Below are positions 3,710-36,984 of a stretch of 64,000 nt of DNA, one piece after another. The notes beneath the pieces were generated by a model. That model saw only the letters and a program-made list of their open reading frames with translations. It was not told the origin of the DNA and did not search any database. Positions within the stretch are counted from its first letter, which is position 1, and every line of letters starts with the position of its first letter. A program made the translations under genes and the position numbers. Source of the DNA: a virus (Duplodnaviria > Caudoviricetes); the IMG/VR virus record IMGVR_UViG_3300033072_001056, positions 3,710 to 67,709 of that record; one strand, given 5' to 3'.

Positions 3710-4690
3710 TTACTTCTTTTTAGGGGTTAGTTCGAGTTTTTTGTCAGCGTAAAGAATAATTAATTCTTCGTCGTCTTCAGATATAGCTGGTAAGCATTTT
3801 CCCAATTCCTCCATGCTTTTTGATTTTTCAATGTGATTTTTCACTCTTTCGCGTTCTTTCGTTTCGTTTACCGCTGTTACATCGAGAGCAACTTCTTCGT
3901 GGTCTACATATTCTGCTTCTACGTCTACCGATTCTCCATTGGTGAAATTGTCATTTTTGATTACCGCTTGGTCGGCCAATACCGCTCTTTGCATTTCAAT
4001 ACTTAACGGAGCGTTTTTAGACAAGTTCAATTTAGTAACTGTCTTCAACGCCATCGCAGAGAATTCGTCTTTCCAAAGCCCGGTTCCAAATTTTTTGTAA
4101 GTCTGAGAATATTTTTTTGCGTGAGCCTCTACTTCTTCGGTTGTCATATAAAAAGACGACTCGAATCCATTAAGCAATTTGAAATAACTCAAATACCCGA
4201 TTACCGGTTTTGATAATCTTTCTTTAGAGTCTTGAATCCATTCGAATTTCATTTCTCCGGACATGCGGTCAAAATACACTAATTCGCCTTGACGAACATC
4301 GGTGTCGTTCATTTTAAGGAATTGGCCGGAACGTTGCGCTAAATTCTTGAAGCCACGATACCCCAATTGAAACTGCGCCACATCTTTAAACGTTCCATCC
4401 GGCTGTTTTGTTTTGTAAGGAACAATGTAGGCAAGCCCTAAATTTGAGTTAATCGGCAAGTCCAAAGAAGCAGCTAAAAGCGCAGCGGTGTAAACAGAAT
4501 TTTGATCCGCTTTCTGTAACAAAGGATTTGAGTTTACGACTGATAGCACAGACGATATAAACCCCACTCCTTTTTGGCCGAGAATTTCGGTAAATTTATT
4601 TTTCACTCCTTCTGAATTCAAAAAAGTTGAAAGAGCTTTAACTCCGGTTGCCGGCGCTTGATTTTGATTTGTTGTCGTTACGTTTGACAT
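3710..4690 (-). CDS. recT: RecT-family single-strand annealing protein
   Basis: LGLAYIVPY, AQFQLGYRGFKNLAQRSGQ, W..EFSAMALKTV. Confidence 0.92.
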   Translation of the reverse strand: MSNVTTTNQNQAPATGVKALSTFLNSEGVKNKFTEILGQKGVGFISSVLSVVNSNPLLQKADQNSVYTAALLAASLDLPINSNLGLAYIVPYKTKQPDGTFKDVAQFQLGYRGFKNLAQRSGQFLKMNDTDVRQGELVYFDRMSGEMKFEWIQDSKERLSKPVIGYLSYFKLLNGFESSFYMTTEEVEAHAKKYSQTYKKFGTGLWKDEFSAMALKTVTKLNLSKNAPLSIEMQRAVLADQAVIKNDNFTNGESVDVEAEYVDHEEVALDVTAVNETKERERVKNHIEKSKSMEELGKCLPAISEDDEELIILYADKKLELTPKKK

Positions 4691-8652: not shown

Positions 8653-8665
8653 AGGTTTTTAGTTT

Positions 8666-8899
8666 TTAGTTTGCCAAGAATAAATCCTTCAAAGAATATC
8701 CTAAAGCGATTAATAATTTATCGATTGTTTGAAATGTCACGTCTGGCATATTTGCTTTTTCAATTTCGCCAATTGCCGAAGCCCGATAAGGATTCCCAAA
8801 AGCTTTTGTTGATAGCTTGGCAAGAGATAGCTTTTGTTTCTTGCGCTCCTTGTGGATGAATTTGCCAATTGCTAAAATTGTTGTCATAACACAGCCCAA
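8666..8899 (-). CDS. XRE-family HTH transcription regulator
   Basis: IGKFIHKERKKQKLSLAKLS...IGEIEKA...TFQTIDKLLIALG. Confidence 0.8.
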   Translation of the reverse strand: MGCVMTTILAIGKFIHKERKKQKLSLAKLSTKAFGNPYRASAIGEIEKANMPDVTFQTIDKLLIALGYSLKDLFLAN

Positions 8900-8962
8900 A
8901 TTATAATTAATACTATCGCTGCCAAAAAATTATAAAACAGCCCTTCGTTTCTTTCGTTAAGT

Positions 8963-9151
8963 TTAAATCTCATTGATTAGATTTTTAAAATTAGACTTTT
9001 GTGATTGAGATAACTCTATGATTTGCTCATTGAACGCGTCATCGTGAGCGCACGTTGATTTTATCTCGTGGTTAGGTAGTTTCTTTATCGATTCTAATAA
9101 TCGTTGCTCTAAAGCCTTGTTTTTGTCTTTTGCAATTTCCGGAGTTGTCAT
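8963..9151 (-). CDS. Hypothetical protein
   Basis: ORF track. Confidence 0.5.
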   Translation of the reverse strand: MTTPEIAKDKNKALEQRLLESIKKLPNHEIKSTCAHDDAFNEQIIELSQSQKSNFKNLINEI

Positions 9152-9169
9152 TTTTGATCGGGATTAAGA

Positions 9170-9466
9170 TTATTTGTGCATAGGCTTATTGCAGTGTATG
9201 CAATTCCACTCAGCTATATGAGTGTGTTGATTTATTTTAACTGGTTCTGAGCGTTTGTACTCATGCAACCCTCTTCCGCATTTTTTTAACGTCGATTTTG
9301 ATGGTTGTTTTTCATTTAAAAGAGAAGGATAGTTTGTTATTTTAATAGGTTCTTGAAAATCATTTTTTATCATAACAACTTCTTCATCAATAACTTTTTG
9401 TAAAGCCGATGTTAAAGTTGATTTACCATGGTCAAGGTGTCCTACGATTATAATTTTCTCTTTCAT
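9170..9466 (-). CDS. Small protein with an EF-Tu-like G1 P-loop N-terminus and a C-terminal C/H zinc-binding motif
   Basis: IVGHLDHGKSTLTSAL; C...H...CxxC; no G3/G4 motifs. Confidence 0.6.
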   Translation of the reverse strand: MKEKIIIVGHLDHGKSTLTSALQKVIDEEVVMIKNDFQEPIKITNYPSLLNEKQPSKSTLKKCGRGLHEYKRSEPVKINQHTHIAEWNCIHCNKPMHK

Positions 9467-9892: not shown

Positions 9893-10054
9893 TTATTCTT
9901 CTTCAGGGTTGGCGTCTATCGTTGTCGGAAAACCAAACAACCAGCTAATTTCGTCTACAATACAATCTCCGTATTCAGGACAATCATATTTTACTAAAAT
10001 TTCTCTCAATTTTTCGTGAGTTTCTCTTGCTTTTTCTTCTGTTATCTGTGCCAT
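9893..10054 (-). CDS. Small acidic hypothetical protein (53 aa, not in ORF track)
   Basis: Manual translation MAQITEEKARETHEKL... Confidence 0.45.
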   Translation of the reverse strand: MAQITEEKARETHEKLREILVKYDCPEYGDCIVDEISWLFGFPTTIDANPEEE

Positions 10055-10059
10055 GTGGT

Positions 10060-10428
10060 TTAGTTTTTACGTTCAAAAATTAGGTTTTCAATATTCGGGT
10101 AATTTTCAATCGGGTTTTGTGTTTTAAATACGTGATTGAAGCGTTGTTTTATTTCGGAGGCGCGTTGCTTAAATGTGCTTTCTTGGCAAATCGGCAATTT
10201 TAACGCCTTCATCTTTACAAATTGGTCAAACAGATTTTGTTTTGCAATACTGCATAAGTATAGCGGTTTTTTATTGATTTGCCAATAACCGTTGTTTAAG
10301 TCAATGCTTATCGCTTCACTCTTTGCTTCTTCTGCTTCAAATCTTTGCAAATCAATTTCTTTTTGCGCCTCTTTTATTGCGTTTTGTATCAATGACAGTA
10401 CGCTGGATTTTCTTTTTGTCTTTTGCAT
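10060..10428 (-). CDS. Hypothetical early protein
   Basis: ORF track. Confidence 0.6.
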   Translation of the reverse strand: MQKTKRKSSVLSLIQNAIKEAQKEIDLQRFEAEEAKSEAISIDLNNGYWQINKKPLYLCSIAKQNLFDQFVKMKALKLPICQESTFKQRASEIKQRFNHVFKTQNPIENYPNIENLIFERKN

Positions 10429-29290: not shown

Positions 29291-31951
29291 ATGAAAAATT
29301 TATCAGCAGATATTGAGATTGCTATTAAAGACGCAATTTCCGGAATGAATTTAGACATTAACATCTTAGATGTTGATGATGACAAATTAGCTACATTGAT
29401 GTCTTCTCGATTAGAATCATTTTCAGCCACAAAGGAAATGATAAAGCTTTGGCAAGAATCACCTAACGCGCCAAGCCAAGCAAAACTTAGAAAAAACGCA
29501 GAGGAACTTATAAAATCGGGAGAAAATTCGATAGAAGTACTTCGTCAAGCGCTTAGAAAAAAAATAGCCTTTAGCGAATTAGACACAGAGAAGTACGGAA
29601 AGGCTATTAAGTCCAAGCCCGTAATTTTTAAGGCAATTAACGAGATTAATGCCGGAGTACTATCTTTGAAACTTCAGTTAGACGCAGACCAATTAGACTT
29701 CAAAGAACGCGAATTTCGACGTGGATTTCCCGAGAAATTTGCTTCGCAAGAATTTTTTCCCGCAAAAGATTATCACAAGGAATGGTATGACAAAGAAACC
29801 GATTCGGTAATGATTTGTCCGCTTGGCACAAAAGGGAAAGTGATTACTCTTGACGGATTAAACATTATGCTTCCGGCGCCACCAAAATCAAAAAAGAAAA
29901 TACTTTTCAGTAATTTACCAAAAGAAGAACAGTATTGGCGAAGAATCGAACCTCCTCAAGGGCTTACTCCGGAAAACGAAGATGTGTACTACGATTTTAT
30001 TATCGAGGAATTCCGTAAGCGTAGGGAGGGAGTTTGGTTTATGAATAACGGTGAACCGGTATATCTTACCCCGGCGCATTATATGGCGTTACAATGGGTG
30101 AAAATGTTAGATACCGGCTCGTTTATGGATTTCAGATATGCGCAAGCAGAAATGTTTTACTTCACGCGCGCGTGTGTTTTAGATCCGCGATGTTTAGGAG
30201 AGCTGTTTGTAAAGTCACGTCGTACCGGTTTTACCTATCAGATTATTTGCGAAATGATAAATGACGGAACCGGAACATCAAATGCCAAACTTGGTATGAT
30301 TTCAAAAACCGGTGATGATGCCCAAGAAGCATTTTTAAAAATGACTTATGGTATTCAAAACTTACCATTCTTTTTTATACCGGTAGTCAAAGGCAAAATT
30401 GACAGTAAAACAGAAGTTGAATTTGCCAAGCCTTCAGATTCTAGTAAGGTTGCCAAAAAGAAAAAAGACAATAGTACCGATGATTACTTGAATACTTTGA
30501 TGAATTGGAAAACGACTACTGAATCTGCTTATGACGGACAAAGAATGTATCGTTTGTTAATTGACGAGGCGTCAAAACCACTACCCCCATTTAATCTTGA
30601 AACTTATTGGGGACGTGTATCTCCAACCATTAATAACGGTGGTAGGATTGTAGGTAAAATATACGTTGGTTCAACGGTAAACCCTATGAAACTTGGTGGG
30701 GACAAATTCTTGAGAATGTACAAAGGCGCTATGGTTTCAAAAAGAGACAAGGACACTCAAAGAACACCAAACGGTCTGTACGCCTACTTCTTGCCAGCTC
30801 ATAAAAACATGGAATTATTTACCGATAAATACGGAGTTTGTCATACTGTTGTACAGCCGGGCGAATCGTTTACCAATGTTTACGGAACTGAAATATTTGA
30901 AGGGTCAATTCAATATTTGGAAAATATCCGTCGCCAAAAAAGAAAGCAATCGGACATTTTGTACAATGAGGAATTGCGCGCTAATCCAATGACTGTTGAA
31001 GAAGCATTTAGAGATGAAGCTAAGGCAAGTATGTTTAATCTCGAGAAGATAAATGACCAAATTGCTTATAATGATTCTCAAGATATTGAGCAAAAACAAC
31101 TTGTTCGCGGTAATTTCCAATGGAAAGACGGGCAAAAAGATTCTGTCGTAGAGTGGCATCCAAATCCAAGAGGTAGATTTTTACTAAGTTGGATTCCACC
31201 TAAAGAATTACAGAATAAATGGGAGATGAAAGTCAATATGTTTGGTGGAAGAAGCAAGCATCCGTCTAATGAAGATTTAGGATGTCTTGGTATTGACTCT
31301 TATGATATTAATTCGACAGTTGATTCTAAATTAGAAAACACAGAGAACGGAAGCGAATGGTCGGGAGGTTCTAAAGGAGCAATATCCGGAGTTACTTCTA
31401 AATTCACATTGAAAGATGCCCCGAGCAACTCTTTCTTTTTAGAGTATATTGCCCGACCGGAAACAGCCGAGATGTTTTTTGAAGATTGTTTAATGGCTTG
31501 TGTGTTTTATGGTATGCCGGCGCTTGTCGAAAATAACAAAGCACGATTGCTTTATCACTTTAAAAACAGAGGTTACCGAGGGTTTTGTCTTAGCCGATTT
31601 GACAAGCCTTCTAACAGATTAAGTCCTACCGAAAAAGAAATTGGCGGAATTCCTTCAAACTCCGCGGACGTTATTCAAATGCACTATACTGCAATTGAGG
31701 CTTATGTAGAAAAATACGTTGGGTATTATACTCAAGGAGATGATTTAGCTCCGGTAAGAGAAGAAAATGAAATTGGTTCAATGCCGTTTAACAGAACATT
31801 GCGCGATTGGGCAAGTTTTAATATTTCAGACAGAACAAAATCGGATATTTCAATTGCCTCGGGTTATGCCTTAATGGGTGTAAACAGACATAGTTACAAG
31901 TTTCAAAACGAAGCACCGGCGCCAATTGCTTTTAAAATTCGTTATAATTAG
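29291..31951 (+). CDS. terL: Terminase large subunit with an ~150 aa N-terminal extension
   Basis: Walker A KSRRTGFT, Walker B LLIDEASK, nuclease GIDSYD, C-terminal D..IASGYALM. Confidence 0.9.
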   Translation: MKNLSADIEIAIKDAISGMNLDINILDVDDDKLATLMSSRLESFSATKEMIKLWQESPNAPSQAKLRKNAEELIKSGENSIEVLRQALRKKIAFSELDTEKYGKAIKSKPVIFKAINEINAGVLSLKLQLDADQLDFKEREFRRGFPEKFASQEFFPAKDYHKEWYDKETDSVMICPLGTKGKVITLDGLNIMLPAPPKSKKKILFSNLPKEEQYWRRIEPPQGLTPENEDVYYDFIIEEFRKRREGVWFMNNGEPVYLTPAHYMALQWVKMLDTGSFMDFRYAQAEMFYFTRACVLDPRCLGELFVKSRRTGFTYQIICEMINDGTGTSNAKLGMISKTGDDAQEAFLKMTYGIQNLPFFFIPVVKGKIDSKTEVEFAKPSDSSKVAKKKKDNSTDDYLNTLMNWKTTTESAYDGQRMYRLLIDEASKPLPPFNLETYWGRVSPTINNGGRIVGKIYVGSTVNPMKLGGDKFLRMYKGAMVSKRDKDTQRTPNGLYAYFLPAHKNMELFTDKYGVCHTVVQPGESFTNVYGTEIFEGSIQYLENIRRQKRKQSDILYNEELRANPMTVEEAFRDEAKASMFNLEKINDQIAYNDSQDIEQKQLVRGNFQWKDGQKDSVVEWHPNPRGRFLLSWIPPKELQNKWEMKVNMFGGRSKHPSNEDLGCLGIDSYDINSTVDSKLENTENGSEWSGGSKGAISGVTSKFTLKDAPSNSFFLEYIARPETAEMFFEDCLMACVFYGMPALVENNKARLLYHFKNRGYRGFCLSRFDKPSNRLSPTEKEIGGIPSNSADVIQMHYTAIEAYVEKYVGYYTQGDDLAPVREENEIGSMPFNRTLRDWASFNISDRTKSDISIASGYALMGVNRHSYKFQNEAPAPIAFKIRYN

Positions 31952-31952
31952 T

Positions 31953-31983
31953 TTTGGTAGATTAAAAAATATTACTATATTTG
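31953..31983 (+). promoter_or_regulatory. Promoter of tRNA array 1
   Basis: TTTG-N19-TATATTTG. Confidence 0.85.
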
Positions 31984-32000
31984 CCTCAAATAAAGAAGAA

Positions 32001-32075
32001 ATGAAAAAAATGATTACCATAAAAACGATTGCAAGAGTTGGGGATAATTTTCCAAGCAAGGGGACTATGGTGTAA
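32001..32075 (+). CDS. Leader peptide 1 (MKKMITIKTIARVGDNFPSKGTMV)
   Basis: Short ORF between promoter and terminator; codons 2-16 match the array-1 tRNAs. Confidence 0.8.
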   Translation: MKKMITIKTIARVGDNFPSKGTMV

Positions 32076-32099
32076 ATTTTGTTTAGTTTTAACACATAA

Positions 32100-32137
32100 A
32101 AAATCCCCTAATAACATTAGGGGATTTTTATTTTTTT
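32100..32137 (+). terminator. Attenuator terminator 1
   Basis: ATCCCCTAAT-AAC-ATTAGGGGAT plus T-tract; left arm also pairs with leader AGGGGA (32059-64). Confidence 0.85.
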
Positions 32138-32211
32138 GGGGGCGTATGTTTCAAGGCTGACGACTTTGATTTGCAATCAGAGTGAGGTGATTTCGATTAT
32201 CACCGTCTCCA
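32138..32211 (+). tRNA. tRNA-Ala(UGC)
   Basis: Cloverleaf, loop TT-TGC-AA, G3:U70. Confidence 0.85.
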
Positions 32212-32226
32212 CAACAATAAGACAAT

Positions 32227-32256
32227 ATGAAAACAAGTAAAAAGTTTAAGAAGTAA
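32227..32256 (+). promoter_or_regulatory. Lys-rich minigene MKTSKKFKK upstream of tRNA-Lys
   Basis: 5 of 9 codons are Lys; followed by mutually exclusive hairpins at 32257-32292. Confidence 0.65.
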
Positions 32257-32288
32257 TCTGCTCTCAATGATTGGGAGTAGAAATCTAT

Positions 32289-32361
32289 TCCCTCTAAACA
32301 TTATTGGTGGATGTACCAAACTTTTAATTTGGGAAGCCGTGTTCGAATCACGGAGGGGGAA
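32289..32361 (+). tRNA. tRNA-Lys(UUU)
   Basis: Cloverleaf, loop CT-TTT-AA. Confidence 0.9.
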
Positions 32362-32366
32362 CGAAA

Positions 32367-32439
32367 CGGAATATAGCTCAATTGGTGGAGCAATCGCCTG
32401 ATACGCGAGAGGTTATAGGTTCAAGTCCTTTTATTCCGA
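32367..32439 (+). tRNA. tRNA-Ile(GAU)
   Basis: Cloverleaf, loop CT-GAT-AC. Confidence 0.92.
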
Positions 32440-32445
32440 CAAAAC

Positions 32446-32518
32446 GCGAGTATGGTGTCAATGGTTAACATTAGAGACTTCCAATCTCAAGATGTCAGTT
32501 CGATTCTGACTACTCGCT
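32446..32518 (+). tRNA. tRNA-Gly(UCC)
   Basis: Cloverleaf, loop CT-TCC-AA, U73. Confidence 0.92.
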
Positions 32519-32523
32519 CAAAA

Positions 32524-32596
32524 GGTCTATAGGTCAAATGGGTAAGATGTCCGGCTGTCGCCCGGTACGGAGAGGGTTCGAATCCCTCATAGACCG
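32524..32596 (+). tRNA. tRNA-Asp(GUC)
   Basis: Cloverleaf, loop CT-GTC-GC, G73. Confidence 0.9.
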
Positions 32597-32602
32597 CTAA
32601 AT

Positions 32603-32675
32603 GCTTCTGTAATTCAATTGGTAGAAACCCGCATTTGTAACGCGGAAGTTGCAGGTTCGACTCCTGTCAGAAGCT
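32603..32675 (+). tRNA. tRNA-Thr(UGU)
   Basis: Cloverleaf, loop TT-TGT-AA; A31-C39 mismatch. Confidence 0.88.
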
Positions 32676-32680
32676 CAATT

Positions 32681-32751
32681 GCCCAATTTGCATAACGGAA
32701 GTGCCGTTGTTTTACACGCAACAGCAGGGTGTTCGATTCACTCATTGGGTA
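32681..32751 (+). tRNA. tRNA-Val(UAC)
   Basis: Cloverleaf, loop TT-TAC-AC. Confidence 0.88.
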
Positions 32752-32756
32752 CAAAT

Positions 32757-32827
32757 GTCGGTATAGTTCAACGGAAGAATAAGACCCTTCTAAGGTTTTG
32801 ATGAGAGTTCGAGTCTCTCTACCGATT
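32757..32827 (+). tRNA. tRNA-Arg(UCU)
   Basis: Cloverleaf, loop CT-TCT-AA. Confidence 0.9.
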
Positions 32828-32832
32828 CAATA

Positions 32833-32909
32833 GGGCTTGTATCGCCTCTGACTCATAATCAGTAGAAAGCGTAATCGGTCACACGGCGGTTCAATTCCGT
32901 CCAAGCCCA
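32833..32909 (+). tRNA. Atypical CAU tRNA (Ile2-like) with the D-arm-like hairpin 3' of the anticodon arm
   Basis: Perfect acceptor and T arms; anticodon arm CTGA-CTCATAA-TCAG starts 9 nt after the acceptor strand. Confidence 0.7.
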
Positions 32910-32913
32910 CAAA

Positions 32914-32985
32914 GGAAGTATGGTGAAATGGTATCACGACAGACTGTTAATCTGTTAGTTTCAAGTTCGAGTCTTGATATTTCCG
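32914..32985 (+). tRNA. tRNA-Asn(GUU)
   Basis: Cloverleaf, loop CT-GTT-AA, G73. Confidence 0.92.
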
Positions 32986-32992
32986 CTAAAAA

Positions 32993-33023
32993 TTTGATAA
33001 TTTGAATTTTATTTTTACATTTG
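32993..33023 (+). promoter_or_regulatory. Promoter of tRNA-Met and array 2
   Basis: TTTG-N19-TACATTTG. Confidence 0.85.
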
Positions 33024-33026
33024 CAG

Positions 33027-33098
33027 GGCGTGAAGGTGTAATCGGTTGCATTGGAGTCTCATAAACTCTACGGGGTGGTTCGAATCCACGACACGCTA
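33027..33098 (+). tRNA. tRNA-Met(CAU), elongator type (Ile2 not excluded)
   Basis: Loop CT-CAT-AA, G2:C71 and C3:G70; lacks the initiator GGG/CCC stem. Confidence 0.75.
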
Positions 33099-33112
33099 CA
33101 AAGACATATATT

Positions 33113-33184
33113 ATGAGAAATTTAAGTTTATGTTCGTTTTATTGGTTGTCGTTTAAAAACGACACGGGATATAGCGCGCATTAA
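33113..33184 (+). CDS. Leader peptide 2 (MRNLSLCSFYWLSFKNDTGYSAH)
   Basis: Codons 4-14 match the array-2 tRNAs. Confidence 0.8.
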   Translation: MRNLSLCSFYWLSFKNDTGYSAH

Positions 33185-33210
33185 ATTTACCTTGTAATTA
33201 TTTAAAAGCT

Positions 33211-33239
33211 AATCCCGTTCGAAAGTTCGGGATTTTTTT
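33211..33239 (+). terminator. Attenuator terminator 2
   Basis: AATCCCG...CGGGATT plus T5; left arm pairs alternatively with leader CGGGATATAGC (33165-75). Confidence 0.85.
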
Positions 33240-33242
33240 ATT

Positions 33243-33326
33243 GGGAGTAACGCTCGAATTGGTTAGGCGCTTGACTGTAAATCAGGTAATCTGCATAGAT
33301 AGGTGGTTCGAATCCATCTGCTCCCA
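33243..33326 (+). tRNA. tRNA-Tyr(GUA)
   Basis: Loop CT-GTA-AA, long variable arm. Confidence 0.9.
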
Positions 33327-33332
33327 CAAAAT

Positions 33333-33406
33333 AGCTGTATGGCGGAACGGTAGACGCATCAGACTTAAAATCTGTACAACTGTGGGTTCGACTCCCACTA
33401 CAGCCA
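33333..33406 (+). tRNA. tRNA-Leu(UAA) lacking the long variable arm
   Basis: Loop CT-TAA-AA; 6-nt variable region; A1-C72 mismatch. Confidence 0.85.
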
Positions 33407-33414
33407 CAAAAAAA

Positions 33415-33501
33415 GGAGGTATAACCCAAGTTGGTCTAAGGGGCGCTGTCTTGAAAACAGTTGGTCGTAATGGCGTGTAAGTTCGAGTCTTACTGCCTCC
33501 G
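33415..33501 (+). tRNA. tRNA-Ser(UGA)
   Basis: Loop CT-TGA-AA, long variable arm, G73. Confidence 0.92.
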
Positions 33502-33507
33502 CAAAAT

Positions 33508-33591
33508 GGAGAGTAAACTAATCAGGTGGTTAGACTTGTTTGCTAAACAATGGGTGGGTAAAACCTTGGGAATCGTGTTCTCTGCTCTCCG
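33508..33591 (+). tRNA. tRNA-Ser(GCU)
   Basis: Loop TT-GCT-AA, long variable arm, non-canonical T-loop ATCGTGT. Confidence 0.85.
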
Positions 33592-33600
33592 CTATAAATT

Positions 33601-33671
33601 GCTTCTCAGCGTAGGTTGTGCCAATCGGTCTCCAAAACCGTATTGTAAAGGTTCGAATCCTTTGAGTCGCG
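33601..33671 (+). tRNA. tRNA-Trp(CCA), degenerate acceptor and short D arm
   Basis: Loop CT-CCA-AA, canonical T arm, two acceptor mismatches. Confidence 0.72.
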
Positions 33672-33676
33672 CAAAA

Positions 33677-33749
33677 GGAAATTTGGCAGATAAGGTTATT
33701 GCGCTCGACTGAAAATCGAGAGGGCTCGGATCGTTACCGAGAATTTCCA
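33677..33749 (+). tRNA. tRNA-Phe(GAA)
   Basis: Loop CT-GAA-AA; T-loop ATCGTTA. Confidence 0.88.
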
Positions 33750-33754
33750 CAAAC

Positions 33755-33825
33755 GACAAGAAGCCTGACGGAGAAGGGTGCGGTCTGCAAAACCAAACAT
33801 CGCGGTTCGATTCCGCGTCTTGTCT
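33755..33825 (+). tRNA. tRNA-Cys(GCA)
   Basis: Loop CT-GCA-AA, U73. Confidence 0.88.
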
Positions 33826-33833
33826 CAAATTAG

Positions 33834-33905
33834 AACGCAATGCAAGATTCGAACTTGCGTCTTTTGGTTCGTAGCCAAAGATTTTTCCAATTAAACTAAT
33901 CGCGC
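33834..33905 (-). tRNA. tRNA-Arg(ACG)
   Basis: Loop CT-ACG-AA on the minus strand. Confidence 0.9.
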
Positions 33906-33910
33906 ATTTG

Positions 33911-33991
33911 TACGGACGAGAGGACTTGAACCTCCAAAGCTAACGGGTCTAAACCGCCAAGATGTGCCATTCTCAATAAAGCCACGTCCGC
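33911..33991 (-). tRNA. Atypical tRNA-Leu(UAG): enlarged D region, no long variable arm
   Basis: Acceptor and T arms intact; loop TT-TAG-AC; ~26-nt D region. Confidence 0.72.
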
Positions 33992-33996
33992 AATTG

Positions 33997-34068
33997 GGTG
34001 TTTTCGGGTCTCGAACCCTGTTCTCCGGATTCACAGTCCGGCACTTTACCTGTTAAGCTAAAAACACC
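33997..34068 (-). tRNA. tRNA-His(GUG)
   Basis: Loop CT-GTG-AA; encoded G-1:C73. Confidence 0.88.
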
Positions 34069-34074
34069 ATATAG

Positions 34075-34147
34075 TTTCTTTGTCAAGACTCGAACTTGAA
34101 CAACGAGAGTCAAAGTCTCGTATGCTAACCAATTACATCACAAAGAA
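34075..34147 (-). tRNA. tRNA-Gln(UUG)
   Basis: Loop CT-TTG-AC; U1:A72. Confidence 0.9.
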
Positions 34148-34153
34148 TTTTAG

Positions 34154-34225
34154 TAACGCATACGGGATTCGAACCCGTGATTAGAAATAGAAAGTTTCTT
34201 GTGCTGACCACTACACTAATGCGTC
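34154..34225 (-). tRNA. tRNA-Glu(UUC)
   Basis: Loop CT-TTC-TA (U at position 37). Confidence 0.88.
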
Positions 34226-34230
34226 TTTTG

Positions 34231-34307
34231 TCTAGTTGGCAGGAATCGAACCTGCGTAACTCCCGCTTCCAAGGCGGGCGAGTATATCCATCTGCTCCGA
34301 CAACTAG
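34231..34307 (-). tRNA. tRNA-Pro(UGG)
   Basis: Loop CT-TGG-AA; C1:G72, A73. Confidence 0.9.
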
Positions 34308-34311
34308 AAAT

Positions 34312-34340
34312 AAAAAAAGCCTCCCAATTACGGAAGGCTT
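34312..34340 (-). terminator. Attenuator terminator 3
   Basis: AAGCCTTCCG-TAAT-TGGGAGGCTT plus T-tract; left arm pairs alternatively with leader CGGGAGG (34379-85). Confidence 0.85.
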
Positions 34341-34365
34341 TAGCTAATATATTTTATTTACATAT

Positions 34366-34440
34366 TTACACGCTTGTTCCTCCCGATAAAATATCCGGCT
34401 CTTGAAGACGTTGTTCAGTATGTAATTTTAATCTTTTCAT
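34366..34440 (-). CDS. Leader peptide 3 (MKRLKLHTEQRLQEPDILSGGTSV)
   Basis: Codons 7-15 match the array-3 tRNAs; near-leaderless ATG. Confidence 0.8.
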   Translation of the reverse strand: MKRLKLHTEQRLQEPDILSGGTSV

Positions 34441-34444
34441 ATTG

Positions 34445-34474
34445 CAAATATATGAATACTTTTTAAGTCTGCAA
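34445..34474 (-). promoter_or_regulatory. Promoter of tRNA array 3
   Basis: TTG-N19-TATATTTG on the minus strand. Confidence 0.85.
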
Positions 34475-34484
34475 GTATTTATAG

Positions 34485-34531
34485 AAAAATAATATGAATT
34501 CTACAACTTATATAAAGTTTTTCTATCTTTG
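34485..34531 (+). promoter_or_regulatory. Late-class promoter (portal)
   Basis: AAAAATAATAT box starting 39 nt before TATCTTTG. Confidence 0.65.
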
Positions 34532-34554
34532 TTGTGTAAATATTTATCAGACAA

Positions 34555-36984
34555 ATGGATAATAGTAAGAACGGCAATTTCAATATAAGCCCAATGGTTA
34601 GTTTTCCAAGTCAATTGGAGCCATTCGAAGTAAAAAAAACTAAAGAGTGGGGGCTAAGATTGGCTCAGTCAATACAAAGCGATTGGTTTTACGGGATGAA
34701 TACCGGAAACTTTTTGTCTTCTCAATTCAATTTGCAAAGACGTGATTTTTTACAAAGACGTTTATACGCAAAAGGATTGCAGTCAATGGACAAATACATA
34801 GAGCAATTCAAATCAGACGGAGACAAGTCGTTCTTAAACCTTCCAACTAAACCGATTAGTATTATCCCTAAATTAGTTGATGTGGTTGTTAATGGGATGG
34901 CCGACAGAGGTTATTCTATTCGTGCTACTTCAATTGACCCGATTGGTCACAAAGAAAGAGTAGCTTACAGAGAGCAGATTGAAACCGACGTTCTTTCAAA
35001 AGACATAATTGTTCAAGCAAAAGAAAAATTAGGCGTAGATGTGGCTAGTATGCCACTAGAACAACTTCCGGAGACCGACGAAGAATTGAACTTGCACATG
35101 GAACTTGAGTACAAGCAATCTATCGAGCTTTCTCAAGAATTGGCAATTGAGCAAGTAATGAATGACAACCGGTACAACGACAAAATAGACAGAATGGTTA
35201 AAAAAGACCTAACTATTTTGGGAGTTTCTTGGGTTAAACATCGTTTTGTTCCGGACAAAGGAATTGTAATCGAGTATGTAAATCCGGAAAACAAAGTGCA
35301 ATCATATACCGACGACCCTTATTTTGAAGATTGCTATTACCACGGAGAATTTAAGACGGTTCCGCTAACTCAAATTTATACGGATTACCAATGGCTTAAT
35401 CTTCCGGAAAACGCAGATATAAAAGCGCAAGTTGAATATTCAGCAAACGGATGGTGGGAATACAATTTGATTGCAAGCAACGACAGAATTAAAGGAGTTG
35501 CCAATTTGCTTTATTTTACATACAAAACCACAAGACCAAAGCAAAGAAAGATAAAACTCAAAGCCACCGGTGAGAAAAGAATTATCCCAATGGAATACAA
35601 AGGGAATCCGGACAAAAACCCAAACATTAAAATAACAACCGTAGAGGAAGAAGTTTTAATGGAAGGAGTTTATGTTTTAGGAACAGACATAATGCTTAAA
35701 TGGGAAGTTGCCGAATCTATGGTTAGACCAAAGTCTAACAGACAAAAGGTAATTGACCAATACATAGGTGTTGCTCCTAATATGGAAAGAGGTTATATTG
35801 ATTCGCCGGTTGCTAGAATGATACCTGTAGAAGACCAATTAAACATACTCGAATTAAAAGGCGCTCAAATCATTCAGAAAATACAACCTGACGGGTTTAT
35901 GATTGATGTGGATGCAATTGCCGAGTTAGATTTAGGAAACGGCTCCAAATTAACCGTTCAAAATGTTGTAGATATGTTTTGGCAAACCGGTAGTATTTTC
36001 ACTAGAAGTTTCGGAGCAAGTGGCGACCCAATGTATTCTAAGCCTATTACTGAATTAAGAACCGGAGACTCTATAACTAAACTACAAGCACTTACCGCTC
36101 AAAAAGCGCAGTATATGGATCAGATGCGTGACGTTATCGGATTAAACAAAGTTTCCGATGCTTCAACACCTGATAAAGATTCTTTAGTAGGAGTTCAAAA
36201 GCTTGCTTCTTTAAATTCAAATATTGCGACTCGTCATATTTTAGATGGGGCTTCTGACATAACAAAAAGAATTGCATTAGCTATTACATATCGAATTCAC
36301 GACTTATTAAAGTTCACCGAATTAAAAGAAGATTTTTCAAGAAAAATAGGTTCGACATCGGTTAAGACGTTAGAGTCTGTAAAAGATTTGCATTTGCACG
36401 ATTTCGCAATTTACTTAGATTTACATTTAGACGATGAGGAACGCGCGAAATTAGAACAAGATATGTCATTGGCAATTGACAAAGGGATGATGAGCATTCA
36501 AGATAAATACAAGGTTTTGAATATTAAAAACTTCAAACTTGCGTTGTCTTATATGACAATTTTGGTCAATAAATATCAGAAAAAACAACAAGAGCAAAAA
36601 GCCCAAGAGTACAAGATACAAGCCGATGAGAACATACGTGCTGCACAAAGCGCAGAGCAAGCTCGTCAGCAAACGGCTCAAATGATTAGTCAATTTGATA
36701 TGGCCAAGCAACAATTGGTTAATGACGGATTGATACAAAAAGAGCAAGTCAAAGGACAGGAAGACCGTTCTACATTGGAAATTAAAATCGAAGGAGATTT
36801 GATGGTTGCCCAAGCACAATCAGGTGTTAAAATGCAGATTCAAGAAGAAATGGAAAACCGTAAGGATGAAAGAGAGAATCTTAGATACACCAATCAAAGC
36901 AAGGAAAACTACAAAAAAGAAACCGGCGGTGCGCCAATTGACTTCACTCAAAACGATGAAATAAACGAAGTGTTTAAAATGTAA
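34555..36984 (+). CDS. Portal protein (crAss/phi14:2-like)
   Basis: Size and position after terL; FPSQ...K...EWG, RRLYAKG.Q, PISIIPK.VDVVVNGM motifs. Confidence 0.85.
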   Translation: MDNSKNGNFNISPMVSFPSQLEPFEVKKTKEWGLRLAQSIQSDWFYGMNTGNFLSSQFNLQRRDFLQRRLYAKGLQSMDKYIEQFKSDGDKSFLNLPTKPISIIPKLVDVVVNGMADRGYSIRATSIDPIGHKERVAYREQIETDVLSKDIIVQAKEKLGVDVASMPLEQLPETDEELNLHMELEYKQSIELSQELAIEQVMNDNRYNDKIDRMVKKDLTILGVSWVKHRFVPDKGIVIEYVNPENKVQSYTDDPYFEDCYYHGEFKTVPLTQIYTDYQWLNLPENADIKAQVEYSANGWWEYNLIASNDRIKGVANLLYFTYKTTRPKQRKIKLKATGEKRIIPMEYKGNPDKNPNIKITTVEEEVLMEGVYVLGTDIMLKWEVAESMVRPKSNRQKVIDQYIGVAPNMERGYIDSPVARMIPVEDQLNILELKGAQIIQKIQPDGFMIDVDAIAELDLGNGSKLTVQNVVDMFWQTGSIFTRSFGASGDPMYSKPITELRTGDSITKLQALTAQKAQYMDQMRDVIGLNKVSDASTPDKDSLVGVQKLASLNSNIATRHILDGASDITKRIALAITYRIHDLLKFTELKEDFSRKIGSTSVKTLESVKDLHLHDFAIYLDLHLDDEERAKLEQDMSLAIDKGMMSIQDKYKVLNIKNFKLALSYMTILVNKYQKKQQEQKAQEYKIQADENIRAAQSAEQARQQTAQMISQFDMAKQQLVNDGLIQKEQVKGQEDRSTLEIKIEGDLMVAQAQSGVKMQIQEEMENRKDERENLRYTNQSKENYKKETGGAPIDFTQNDEINEVFKM

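Follow-up and report, generated by a model that had tools for sequence, protein, structure and literature searches.

What tells a bacteriophage when to make the transfer RNAs (tRNAs) that it carries? We approach this question through one short element, Leader 2, a 23-codon open reading frame (ORF) in the genome of a tailed virus of the class Caudoviricetes (IMG/VR record IMGVR_UViG_3300033072_001056) that stands in front of a block of seven tRNA genes, array 2. Arguing from the sequence, we propose that Leader 2 is very probably the sensor of a ribosome-mediated transcription attenuator that gates array 2 and senses tRNA supply—in other words, that the phage probably makes this tRNA block only when the matching codons are decoded slowly. 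The leader-peptide attenuator had been put forward in an original prediction, and it has passed every computational test that we applied: statistics of the codon run (which we call the roster), competing helices, folds with a modelled ribosome footprint, covariation, and the tracking of tRNA content by codons. From the same material we infer translation of the ORF, stalling within it, regulated termination in vivo, and the natural trigger. By “the window” we mean the whole stretch analyzed, 64,000 nucleotides (nt) that correspond to positions 3,710 to 67,709 of the record and make up most of its 67,709 base pairs (bp); the record is rated 100% complete, and coordinates are those of the window unless a relative is named.

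The Leader 2 ORF lies on the plus strand at 33113–33184, from an ATG at 33113 to a TAA at 33182–33184 (23 codons plus stop; peptide MRNLSLCSFYWLSFKNDTGYSAH), beginning 13 nt past a tRNA-Met and ending 58 nt ahead of tRNA-Tyr, the first gene of array 2. Array 2 itself (33243–33826, plus strand) consists of tRNA-Tyr(GTA) at 33243–33326, tRNA-Leu(TAA) at 33333–33407, tRNA-Ser(TGA) at 33415–33502, tRNA-Ser(GCT) at 33508–33592, tRNA-Trp(CCA) at 33601–33672, tRNA-Phe(GAA) at 33677–33750, and tRNA-Cys(GCA) at 33755–33826, as established with ARAGORN, the Rfam tRNA model, and a direct reading of the anticodon arms. Codons 4–14 (33122–33154, plus strand) form the roster, TTA AGT TTA TGT TCG TTT TAT TGG TTG TCG TTT, and they are, just as had been proposed, read by exactly these seven tRNAs, with every one of the seven represented and the run uninterrupted. 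How easily could such a run come about? Codons of this set account for 31% of the window's trinucleotides, and at those frequencies the exact probability that 22 random codons hold an unbroken run covering all seven tRNAs is 1.4e-5; among the 39,106 open 23-codon windows found elsewhere in the stretch, not one has a complete run of this kind for any of the three tRNA sets that the virus carries.

The strongest evidence for reading Leader 2 as an attenuator comes from its relatives, in which the roster appears to follow the content of the array. Their tRNA cassettes were gathered by terminase, portal, and pattern searches (L007, L008, L023, L035, L051, L054, L056, L062, L063, and L064); two degenerate pattern scans returned mostly chance matches, 22 of 26 loci being without tRNA arrays in one and both loci being unrelated in the other. 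Over 21 leaders, including those of the cultured Cellulophaga phage phi38:1, the leader belonging to an array contains within codons 2–17 a cognate codon for 159 of the 160 array tRNAs (odds ratio 551), and six gains, losses, or moves of tRNA genes are mirrored by the leader codons, one of them predicted beforehand. Where tRNA-Lys is missing, in L051, the Leader 1 roster (INTINMIARVGDN) has no Lys codon, while four cassettes with tRNA-Lys have one to three; where tRNA-Glu is missing, in L023, the leader reads QHLPQR, with no Glu codon. The array of L054 holds Tyr, Phe, Leu-TAA, Ser-TGA, Ser-GCT, Leu-TAG, and Cys but no Trp, and its leader, AGT TTA TAT CTA TCG TTT TGT TAT TCG, has gained CTA and lost TGG. 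Likewise, Leu-TAG follows Ser-GCT in L007, and there a CTA codon sits within a roster made only of Ser, Leu, and Tyr codons.

In phi38:1 (NC_021796), the arrays are found elsewhere in the genome and the tRNAs are distributed among them differently; the T-runs behind its leaders A, B, and C stand at ~35.40, ~36.92, and ~38.13 kb. Its array B holds tRNA-Asn and no Leu tRNA; leader B has five Asn codons (four AAT and one AAC) among its Tyr, Phe, Ser, Trp, and Cys codons, and its roster has no Leu codon. Leader C carries three TTA codons besides CTA and CTT, from which we predicted a Leu-TAA tRNA in array C, and this tRNA was then found (the array reads Pro, Glu, Gln, His, Leu-TAG, Leu-TAA, Arg-ACG). 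ORFs homologous to Leader 2 occur in nine relatives with the roster permuted within the same codon set, and in L056 and L064 the order is shuffled and the set retained; therefore, selection would appear to act on the identity of the codons rather than on the sequence of the peptide. Non-cognate codons are concentrated at the beginning of the leader, in its first two to four positions (AAA, ACA, AAT), which is as expected for efficient initiation, and in the 3′ part that forms an RNA helix.

What does that 3′ part do? It can enter one of two mutually exclusive structures, both on the plus strand. The 5′ arm of the putative antiterminator, which we call R2, occupies codons 18–21 (33164–33175; ACGGGATATAGC, ACGGGAT(A)TAGC), 7 nt before the stop codon and 9 nt before the end of the ORF, and its partner (33208–33218; GCTAATCCCGT) overlaps the 5′ arm of terminator 2. 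A 10-bp pairing of 33165–33175 with 33208–33217 had been proposed; the pairing exists but actually comprises 11 bp with one bulge, at a computed energy of -16.0 kcal/mol (RNAduplex; z = -4.8 versus shuffles), and this missing pair is the only correction that the coordinates and sequences given for Leader 2 in the original prediction required. Terminator 2 is present at 33211–33239 as described there: AATCCCG (33211–33217) pairs with CGGGATT (33228–33234) around a GAAA-capped loop, the hairpin (-10.6 kcal/mol in RNAfold) is followed by seven T, and the antiterminator excludes it by sharing 33211–33218. A simple terminator scan detected terminators 1 and 3 of this virus and overlooked terminator 2, with its 10-nt loop. 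On an unrelated metagenome contig (L055, 1171–1200), the identical terminator sequence, AATCCCGTTCGAAAGTTCGGGATTTTTTT, closes an ordinary protein-coding ORF, which makes it a plain terminator there, to judge by that setting.

Directly 5′ of the antiterminator arm stands a small hairpin, P1 (33148–33163, plus strand; GTCGTT-TAAA-AACGAC), which RNAfold gives 7 bp and -7.0 kcal/mol and which is kept in all nine leaders of the Leader 2 type, with stem changes that preserve the pairing. It had been assigned the role of the 1:2 helix of a classical attenuator; the hairpin is there, but in the folds, it does not by itself sequester the antiterminator arm, and from this modelling it is likely to be a pause or spacer hairpin.

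A ribosome was brought into the folds by blocking a 29-nt footprint at successive A-site positions. For full-length Leader 2, the minimum free energy structure contains the terminator when the RNA is free (33135–33143 then pairs with 33168–33176, covering part of the antiterminator arm), the antiterminator when the A site is at codons 5–13, and the terminator again from codon 14 to the stop. When the RNA was made to end just before the 3′ arm of the terminator, which we took to represent the point at which the choice is made, the antiterminator persisted in each of the three leaders of the virus for A-site positions up to codons 14–16 and was then lost. A ribosome standing on the stop codon would cover R2. 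This geometry is general: the 18 homologous leaders all have the end of the antiterminator arm 3–13 nt before the end of the ORF, within the footprint of the terminating ribosome, and the intrinsic terminator lies 19–28 nt past the stop codon, save one measuring artefact (in the window's three leaders, the hairpin plus T-run stands 22–26 nt past it).

If both helices mattered, changes in one arm ought to be answered in the others. MAFFT alignments of the leader-terminator regions put divergent members one column out of structural register, and automatic covariation counts were not used; covariation was judged instead by duplex energies with swap and shuffle controls, and compensatory positions were read directly. 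Duplexes between the 3′ part of each leader and the 5′ arm of its own terminator add up to -211.9 kcal/mol, whereas permuted partners give -140.5 +/- 11.7, and not one of 20,000 permutations reached so low a value; inside each leader family, the same permutation test gave p = 0.05, 0.03, and 0.014. In Leader 1 of L008, AGAGGGT pairs with ATCCTCT, a compensatory change relative to AGGGGA/TCCCCT in the window, and in Leader 3, terminators of the types GCCTTCC, ACCTCC, CCACTC, and CCACTT face arms CGGGAGG/CGGAAGG, GGAGG, GGGTGG, and GAGTGG. Leader 2 itself offers the most direct reading: in L064 and L007, the terminator is CCCT.../...AGGG and not CCCG.../...CGGG, and the leader has AAGGG and not ACGGG, so that at one position the arm has gone from C to A, the terminator 5′ arm from G to T, and its 3′ arm from C to A. 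This triple change is as expected from sequences in which both helices matter.

Leader 2 has two sisters in the window. Leader 1 (32001–32075, plus strand; MKKMITIKTIARVGDNFPSKGTMV) has codons 2–16 all read by array 1, and these 15 consecutive codons cover 11 of 11 array 1 tRNAs (chance 6.8e-7); they include ATA, matched to the second tRNA with a CAT anticodon, and a lysidine-modified CAT tRNA would read ATA. Its antiterminator arm, AGGGGA at 32059–32064, pairs with TCCCCT at 32104–32109, and terminator 1 (32099–32137) is a 14-bp stem followed by a T-run, all on the plus strand. Leader 3 (34366–34440, minus strand; MKRLKLHTEQRLQEPDILSGGTSV) covers six of six array 3 tRNAs in a roster of nine codons with one foreign codon, ACT (CAT ACT GAA CAA CGT CTT CAA GAG CCG, 34422–34396; chance ~3.5e-5); its arm CGGGAGG (34379–34385, minus strand) pairs with CCTTCCG in the 5′ arm of terminator 3 (34309–34341, minus strand), an 11-bp stem followed by a T-run. 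Counted by codon boxes, all 61 sense codons are split among the three arrays and their rosters.

The promoters are of the Bacteroidetes type. A scan for the pattern TTTG-N19-TAnnTTTG found nine sites in the window, where 2.8 were expected. The Leader 1 promoter (31953–31983, plus strand) is TTTG, 19 nt, and TATATTTG; the one that would serve tRNA-Met and Leader 2 (32993–33023, plus strand) is TTTG, 19 nt, and TACATTTG, a motif that L008 and L056 share in front of this tRNA. Leader 2 has no promoter of its own and is predicted to be cotranscribed behind tRNA-Met (33027–33099) from the 32993–33023 promoter; because this tRNA is transcribed ahead of the leader, it would lie outside the control of attenuator 2. 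For Leader 3, the motif TATATTTG ends 4 nt ahead of the ATG, with CTTG as the -33 element; a search for TAnnTTTG-N5-ATGAAA gave no matches, the Leader 3 spacing being 4 nt. Where a leader of type 2 or 3 has a promoter to itself (window 34441–34456, minus strand; L007 7690–7704; L054; L059 2430–2447 and 3672–3690), the -7 motif, which is TAnnTTTG (TAnnTTTA in phi38:1), ends 4–5 nt before the ATG, and the mRNAs of such leaders are probably leaderless or nearly so.

How, then, might the device work? Host RNA polymerase would start at the 32993–33023 promoter, or arrive by reading through from array 1, and would transcribe tRNA-Met and then the 23-codon ORF, which a ribosome would translate while the polymerase proceeds. 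Were the 11 roster codons decoded fast, the ribosome would reach the 3′ end of the ORF and cover 33164–33175, the terminator at 33211–33239 would fold, and transcription would halt 3 nt ahead of tRNA-Tyr. Were any one of the seven aminoacyl-tRNAs scarce, the ribosome would stall within 33122–33154, leaving 33164–33175 to pair with 33208–33218 and occupy the 5′ arm of the terminator, and the polymerase would enter array 2. The products of the array would relieve the stall, so that tRNA supply would feed back negatively on the array's own transcription. Leaders 1 and 3 would act likewise on arrays 1 and 3, each array separately. Candidate triggers are the loss of host tRNAs in infection, tRNA-cleaving defence nucleases, amino-acid starvation, and a mismatch in codon usage.

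Several observations speak against this scheme, and we set them out together. The leaders are not phylogenetically independent, so a Fisher p-value computed on the 159 of 160 matches overstates the support that they give. Some roster positions are non-cognate (ACT in Leader 3 and AAC in leader A of phi38:1), and each roster spends one to three codons on a tRNA, with no long runs of the sort seen in hisL or pheL. When the untranslated RNA is cut before the 3′ arm of the terminator, it forms the antiterminator with no ribosome at all; the modelling suggests that there may be no strong anti-antiterminator and that the untranslated default may be read-through, unlike trpL. In Leaders 1 and 3, equilibrium stability favors the terminator over the antiterminator, so the switch would have to be kinetic, and folding cannot prove kinetics. 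Finally, coupling of transcription to translation in hosts of the class Flavobacteriia is an assumption of the scheme.

Could the same leaders be explained in some other way? The alternative that we take most seriously, though we think it unlikely, keeps the sensing of decoding speed and changes the output to Rho access, RNase processing, or the stability of tRNA precursors, with the hairpin and T-run acting as a constitutive partial terminator or processing site. Precursors of tRNA need processing anyway, the terminators of Leaders 1 and 3 always win at equilibrium, and a Lys-rich mini-ORF at 32227–32256, followed by a conserved hairpin with no T-run, looks like a similar unit that does without a canonical terminator. 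Such an output would not explain why 18 of 18 leaders retain, at a set spacing past the stop codon, a canonical hairpin with its T-run, nor why the 3′ part of the ORF covaries specifically with the 5′ arm of the terminator, which is the signature of an antiterminator. Less probable again is a translation-independent RNA switch, broadly like a T-box, in which free tRNAs would bind the roster triplets directly through their anticodons, tipping the choice of terminator or antiterminator. This model too predicts roster codons complementary to the anticodons of the array, but all the triplets are in a single frame, opened by a conserved ATG (usually ATG AAA) and closed by a stop codon whose spacing to the terminator is also conserved, the geometry suits a ribosome footprint, and 7 to 11 adjacent triplets could not each hold a tRNA; nor did we find a match to the T-box or any other riboswitch family.

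Might the peptides themselves be the point? One could suppose that the small ORFs encode functional micropeptides, Leader 2 being short and hydrophobic (the LSLCSFYWLSF stretch), and that the terminators are ordinary insulators between transcription units; leader A of phi38:1 does fall inside a coding sequence annotated as a hypothetical protein. We consider this very improbable: among relatives the residues are reshuffled within an unchanged codon set, the composition keeps exact step with the tRNAs of the following array, Leaders 1 and 3 are not hydrophobic, and the conserved 3′ parts are the pairing partners of terminators. That T-rich spacers of an AT-rich phage merely happen to read Leu, Ser, Phe, Tyr, Cys, and Trp has in its favor the 31% share of such codons, but the probability of a complete unbroken run calculated above, its absence from every control window, and a rule that holds for two leaders of quite different composition and for 21 leaders overall rule that explanation out. 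The ribosome-mediated attenuator is the reading with the best support.

The logic of such an attenuator is familiar. The enterobacterial leader-peptide attenuators include the ilvGMEDA leader (with Ile, Leu, and Val codons), the thr leader (Thr and Ile), trpL, hisL, pheL, and leuL. Like the ilv- and thr-type leaders, the phage leaders place a short ORF between promoter and first gene, carry regulatory codons for more than one amino acid, and combine an intrinsic terminator with an antiterminator overlapping its 5′ arm and with ribosome position as the proposed signal. Unlike the enterobacterial leaders, the phage device would control tRNAs, the very molecules sensed, and not biosynthetic enzymes; its rosters address 6–11 tRNA species with one to three codons each, in place of runs of one or two codon types; it is phage borne, in an apparently mobile cassette; and its anti-antiterminator may be weak or absent. 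Nearer in target is the pheM leader, which attenuates pheST (phenylalanyl-tRNA synthetase) in Escherichia coli and shares with the phage leaders the control of a component of the translation machinery rather than of amino-acid synthesis; in contrast to them, pheM controls a synthetase through the codons of one amino acid, and no tRNA genes are gated.

The T-box makes direct contact with a single uncharged tRNA, no ribosome being needed, and its stem I and T-box sequence are conserved. It resembles the phage leaders in reading tRNA status through a codon-like specifier and in choosing between terminator and antiterminator, and it differs in that the phage triplets lie in a translatable frame; the T-box model had no match at E <= 1 in window 30000–36000. 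None of the Rfam leader families (Trp, His, Leu, Thr, Phe) matched at its gathering score, the only leader match being Phe_leader at 27.8 bits against a threshold of 55, at 34310–34364, on the Leader 3 terminator; by sequence, then, the phage leaders belong to no curated leader family. In full-text literature searches, no account of tRNA genes controlled by a leader peptide came up, and the time-course RNA-seq paper on Cellulophaga baltica infected with phi38:1 (PMC5335546) does not discuss the tRNA leaders of that phage.

The remaining arrays deserve a description of their own. Array 1 (32138–32986, plus strand) reads Ala, Lys, Ile(GAT), Gly, Asp, Thr, Val, Arg(TCT), an odd tRNA with a CAT anticodon, and Asn, and as its 11th member, we count the Met-type tRNA with a CAT anticodon (33027–33099, plus strand; ARAGORN, and 30.8 bits with the Rfam tRNA model), which stands at the same position in L008, L035, L051, L056, L062, and L064. 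This last tRNA is probably not an initiator because its anticodon stem lacks the three G-C pairs. The odd CAT tRNA (32833–32909) has its D-arm cut to 4 nt and an 18-nt insert in the variable region, D-loop-like (GCGTAATCGGTCAC); it scores 33.7 bits with the Rfam tRNA model and was missed by ARAGORN. It is kept in L008 with compensatory changes in the anticodon stem (the Arg-TCT tRNA of L008 is similarly odd), and an ordinary cloverleaf takes its place in L035, L051, and L056. Array 3 (33833–34307, minus strand) holds Pro(TGG), Glu(TTC), Gln(TTG), His(GTG), Leu(TAG), and Arg(ACG), as given by ARAGORN, Rfam, and the anticodon arms. It meets array 2 head-on at 33826–33833, with 6 nt and no terminator between tRNA-Cys on the plus strand and tRNA-Arg-ACG on the minus strand. 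Four calls of ARAGORN in relaxed mode were rejected once the anticodon arms had been checked by hand: “Phe-aaa” in L035 and “Glu” at the end of L023 are spurious, and “Pro-tgg” in the window and “Ala-ggc” in L051 are miscalled Leu-TAG.

Nested within array 1, between tRNA-Ala and tRNA-Lys, is the mini-ORF already mentioned (32227–32256; MKTSKKFKK), five of whose nine codons are Lys; the conserved hairpin that follows is CTCTCAA/TTGGGAG (32261–32277). The mini-ORF is kept in L008, L035, and L062 (MKTSKKYKR), in L056 (MTNKLKYKR), and in L064 (MKKEFKKYKQI), where the hairpin is a compensatory variant (CACCTTCAA/TTGAGGGTG); in L051, both the mini-ORF and tRNA-Lys are absent. Mini-ORF and hairpin may be a Lys-specific subswitch that uses another mechanism.

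All of these elements sit in one place. The cassette (31952–34481) packs three promoters, three leader ORFs, three terminators, and 24 tRNA genes into 2.53 kb, with no further tRNA gene elsewhere in the 67.7-kb genome, and it is a compact module with its own promoters at both ends. It is flanked by the genes for the terminase large subunit (29291–31951) and the portal (34555–36984). Its terminase relates the virus to podophages of Flavobacteriia, namely Flavobacterium phage elemo (56% amino-acid identity), Maribacter phage Panino (52%), and Cellulophaga phage phi38:1 (41%); in cultured relatives, the portal gene follows the terminase gene directly, with nothing between. In IMGVR_UViG_3300033068_001724 (L004 8650–8690; also L004/L025), terminase large subunit and portal are 99–100% identical to those of the window, and 17 nt replace the cassette, which puts its presence/absence boundaries in the window at 31951/31952 and 34481/34482. 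Its orientation is flipped in L008 and L035. Present or absent between near-identical flanks and inverted in these two relatives, the regulated tRNA set therefore appears to travel as one unit. Between the terminase gene and the inverted cassette, L008 has an ORF of 194 aa (8661–9242, minus strand) with a NUMOD4 motif (PF07463, E = 4e-9), a motif typical of homing endonucleases. Two other relatives have joins between cassette and structural genes: in L063 (~3730–3800), a portal-gene fragment replaces the 5′ half of leader 3, with the junction at a common CCGGAA, and in L062 (~9990–10300), an internal terminase fragment replaces leader 1 and the 5′ half of tRNA-Ala. Either the rearrangements are real or the assemblies are chimeric.

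Why should a phage want such a thing? The reason for phage tRNA genes has been debated for ~50 years, between compensation for codon usage and replacement of host tRNAs lost to degradation or to defence nucleases, and to our knowledge, little has been reported on how phage tRNA genes are regulated. One could imagine, and we offer it tentatively as a possibility that we rather doubt, that the cassette is a portable, self-regulating tRNA supply whose rosters sense, as infection proceeds, which host tRNAs are disappearing (for example, through anticodon nucleases or other defences that target tRNA)—a mobile 2.5-kb counter-defence sensor in which each roster would switch on only its matching phage tRNA block.

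If the attenuator reading is true, the phage gauges decoding speed codon by codon and resupplies only the tRNAs that are scarce, and it would do so by direct feedback on tRNA pools through the attenuation logic of the trp and his type, which the literature that we found does not describe for tRNA genes. There would also be a simple sequence rule, “roster equals array,” for predicting such regulation; there would be evidence of leader-peptide attenuation, and with it of transcription-translation coupling, in Flavobacteriia; and there would be a compact natural sensor for the availability of as many as 11 tRNAs. Phi38:1, a cultured phage of Cellulophaga, has the same design and so offers it in a phage-host pair that can be tested at the bench. 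To this, the window adds a podophage of 67.7 kb that carries the whole system as a 2.5-kb presence/absence cassette, and with it further cases in which leader and array change together.

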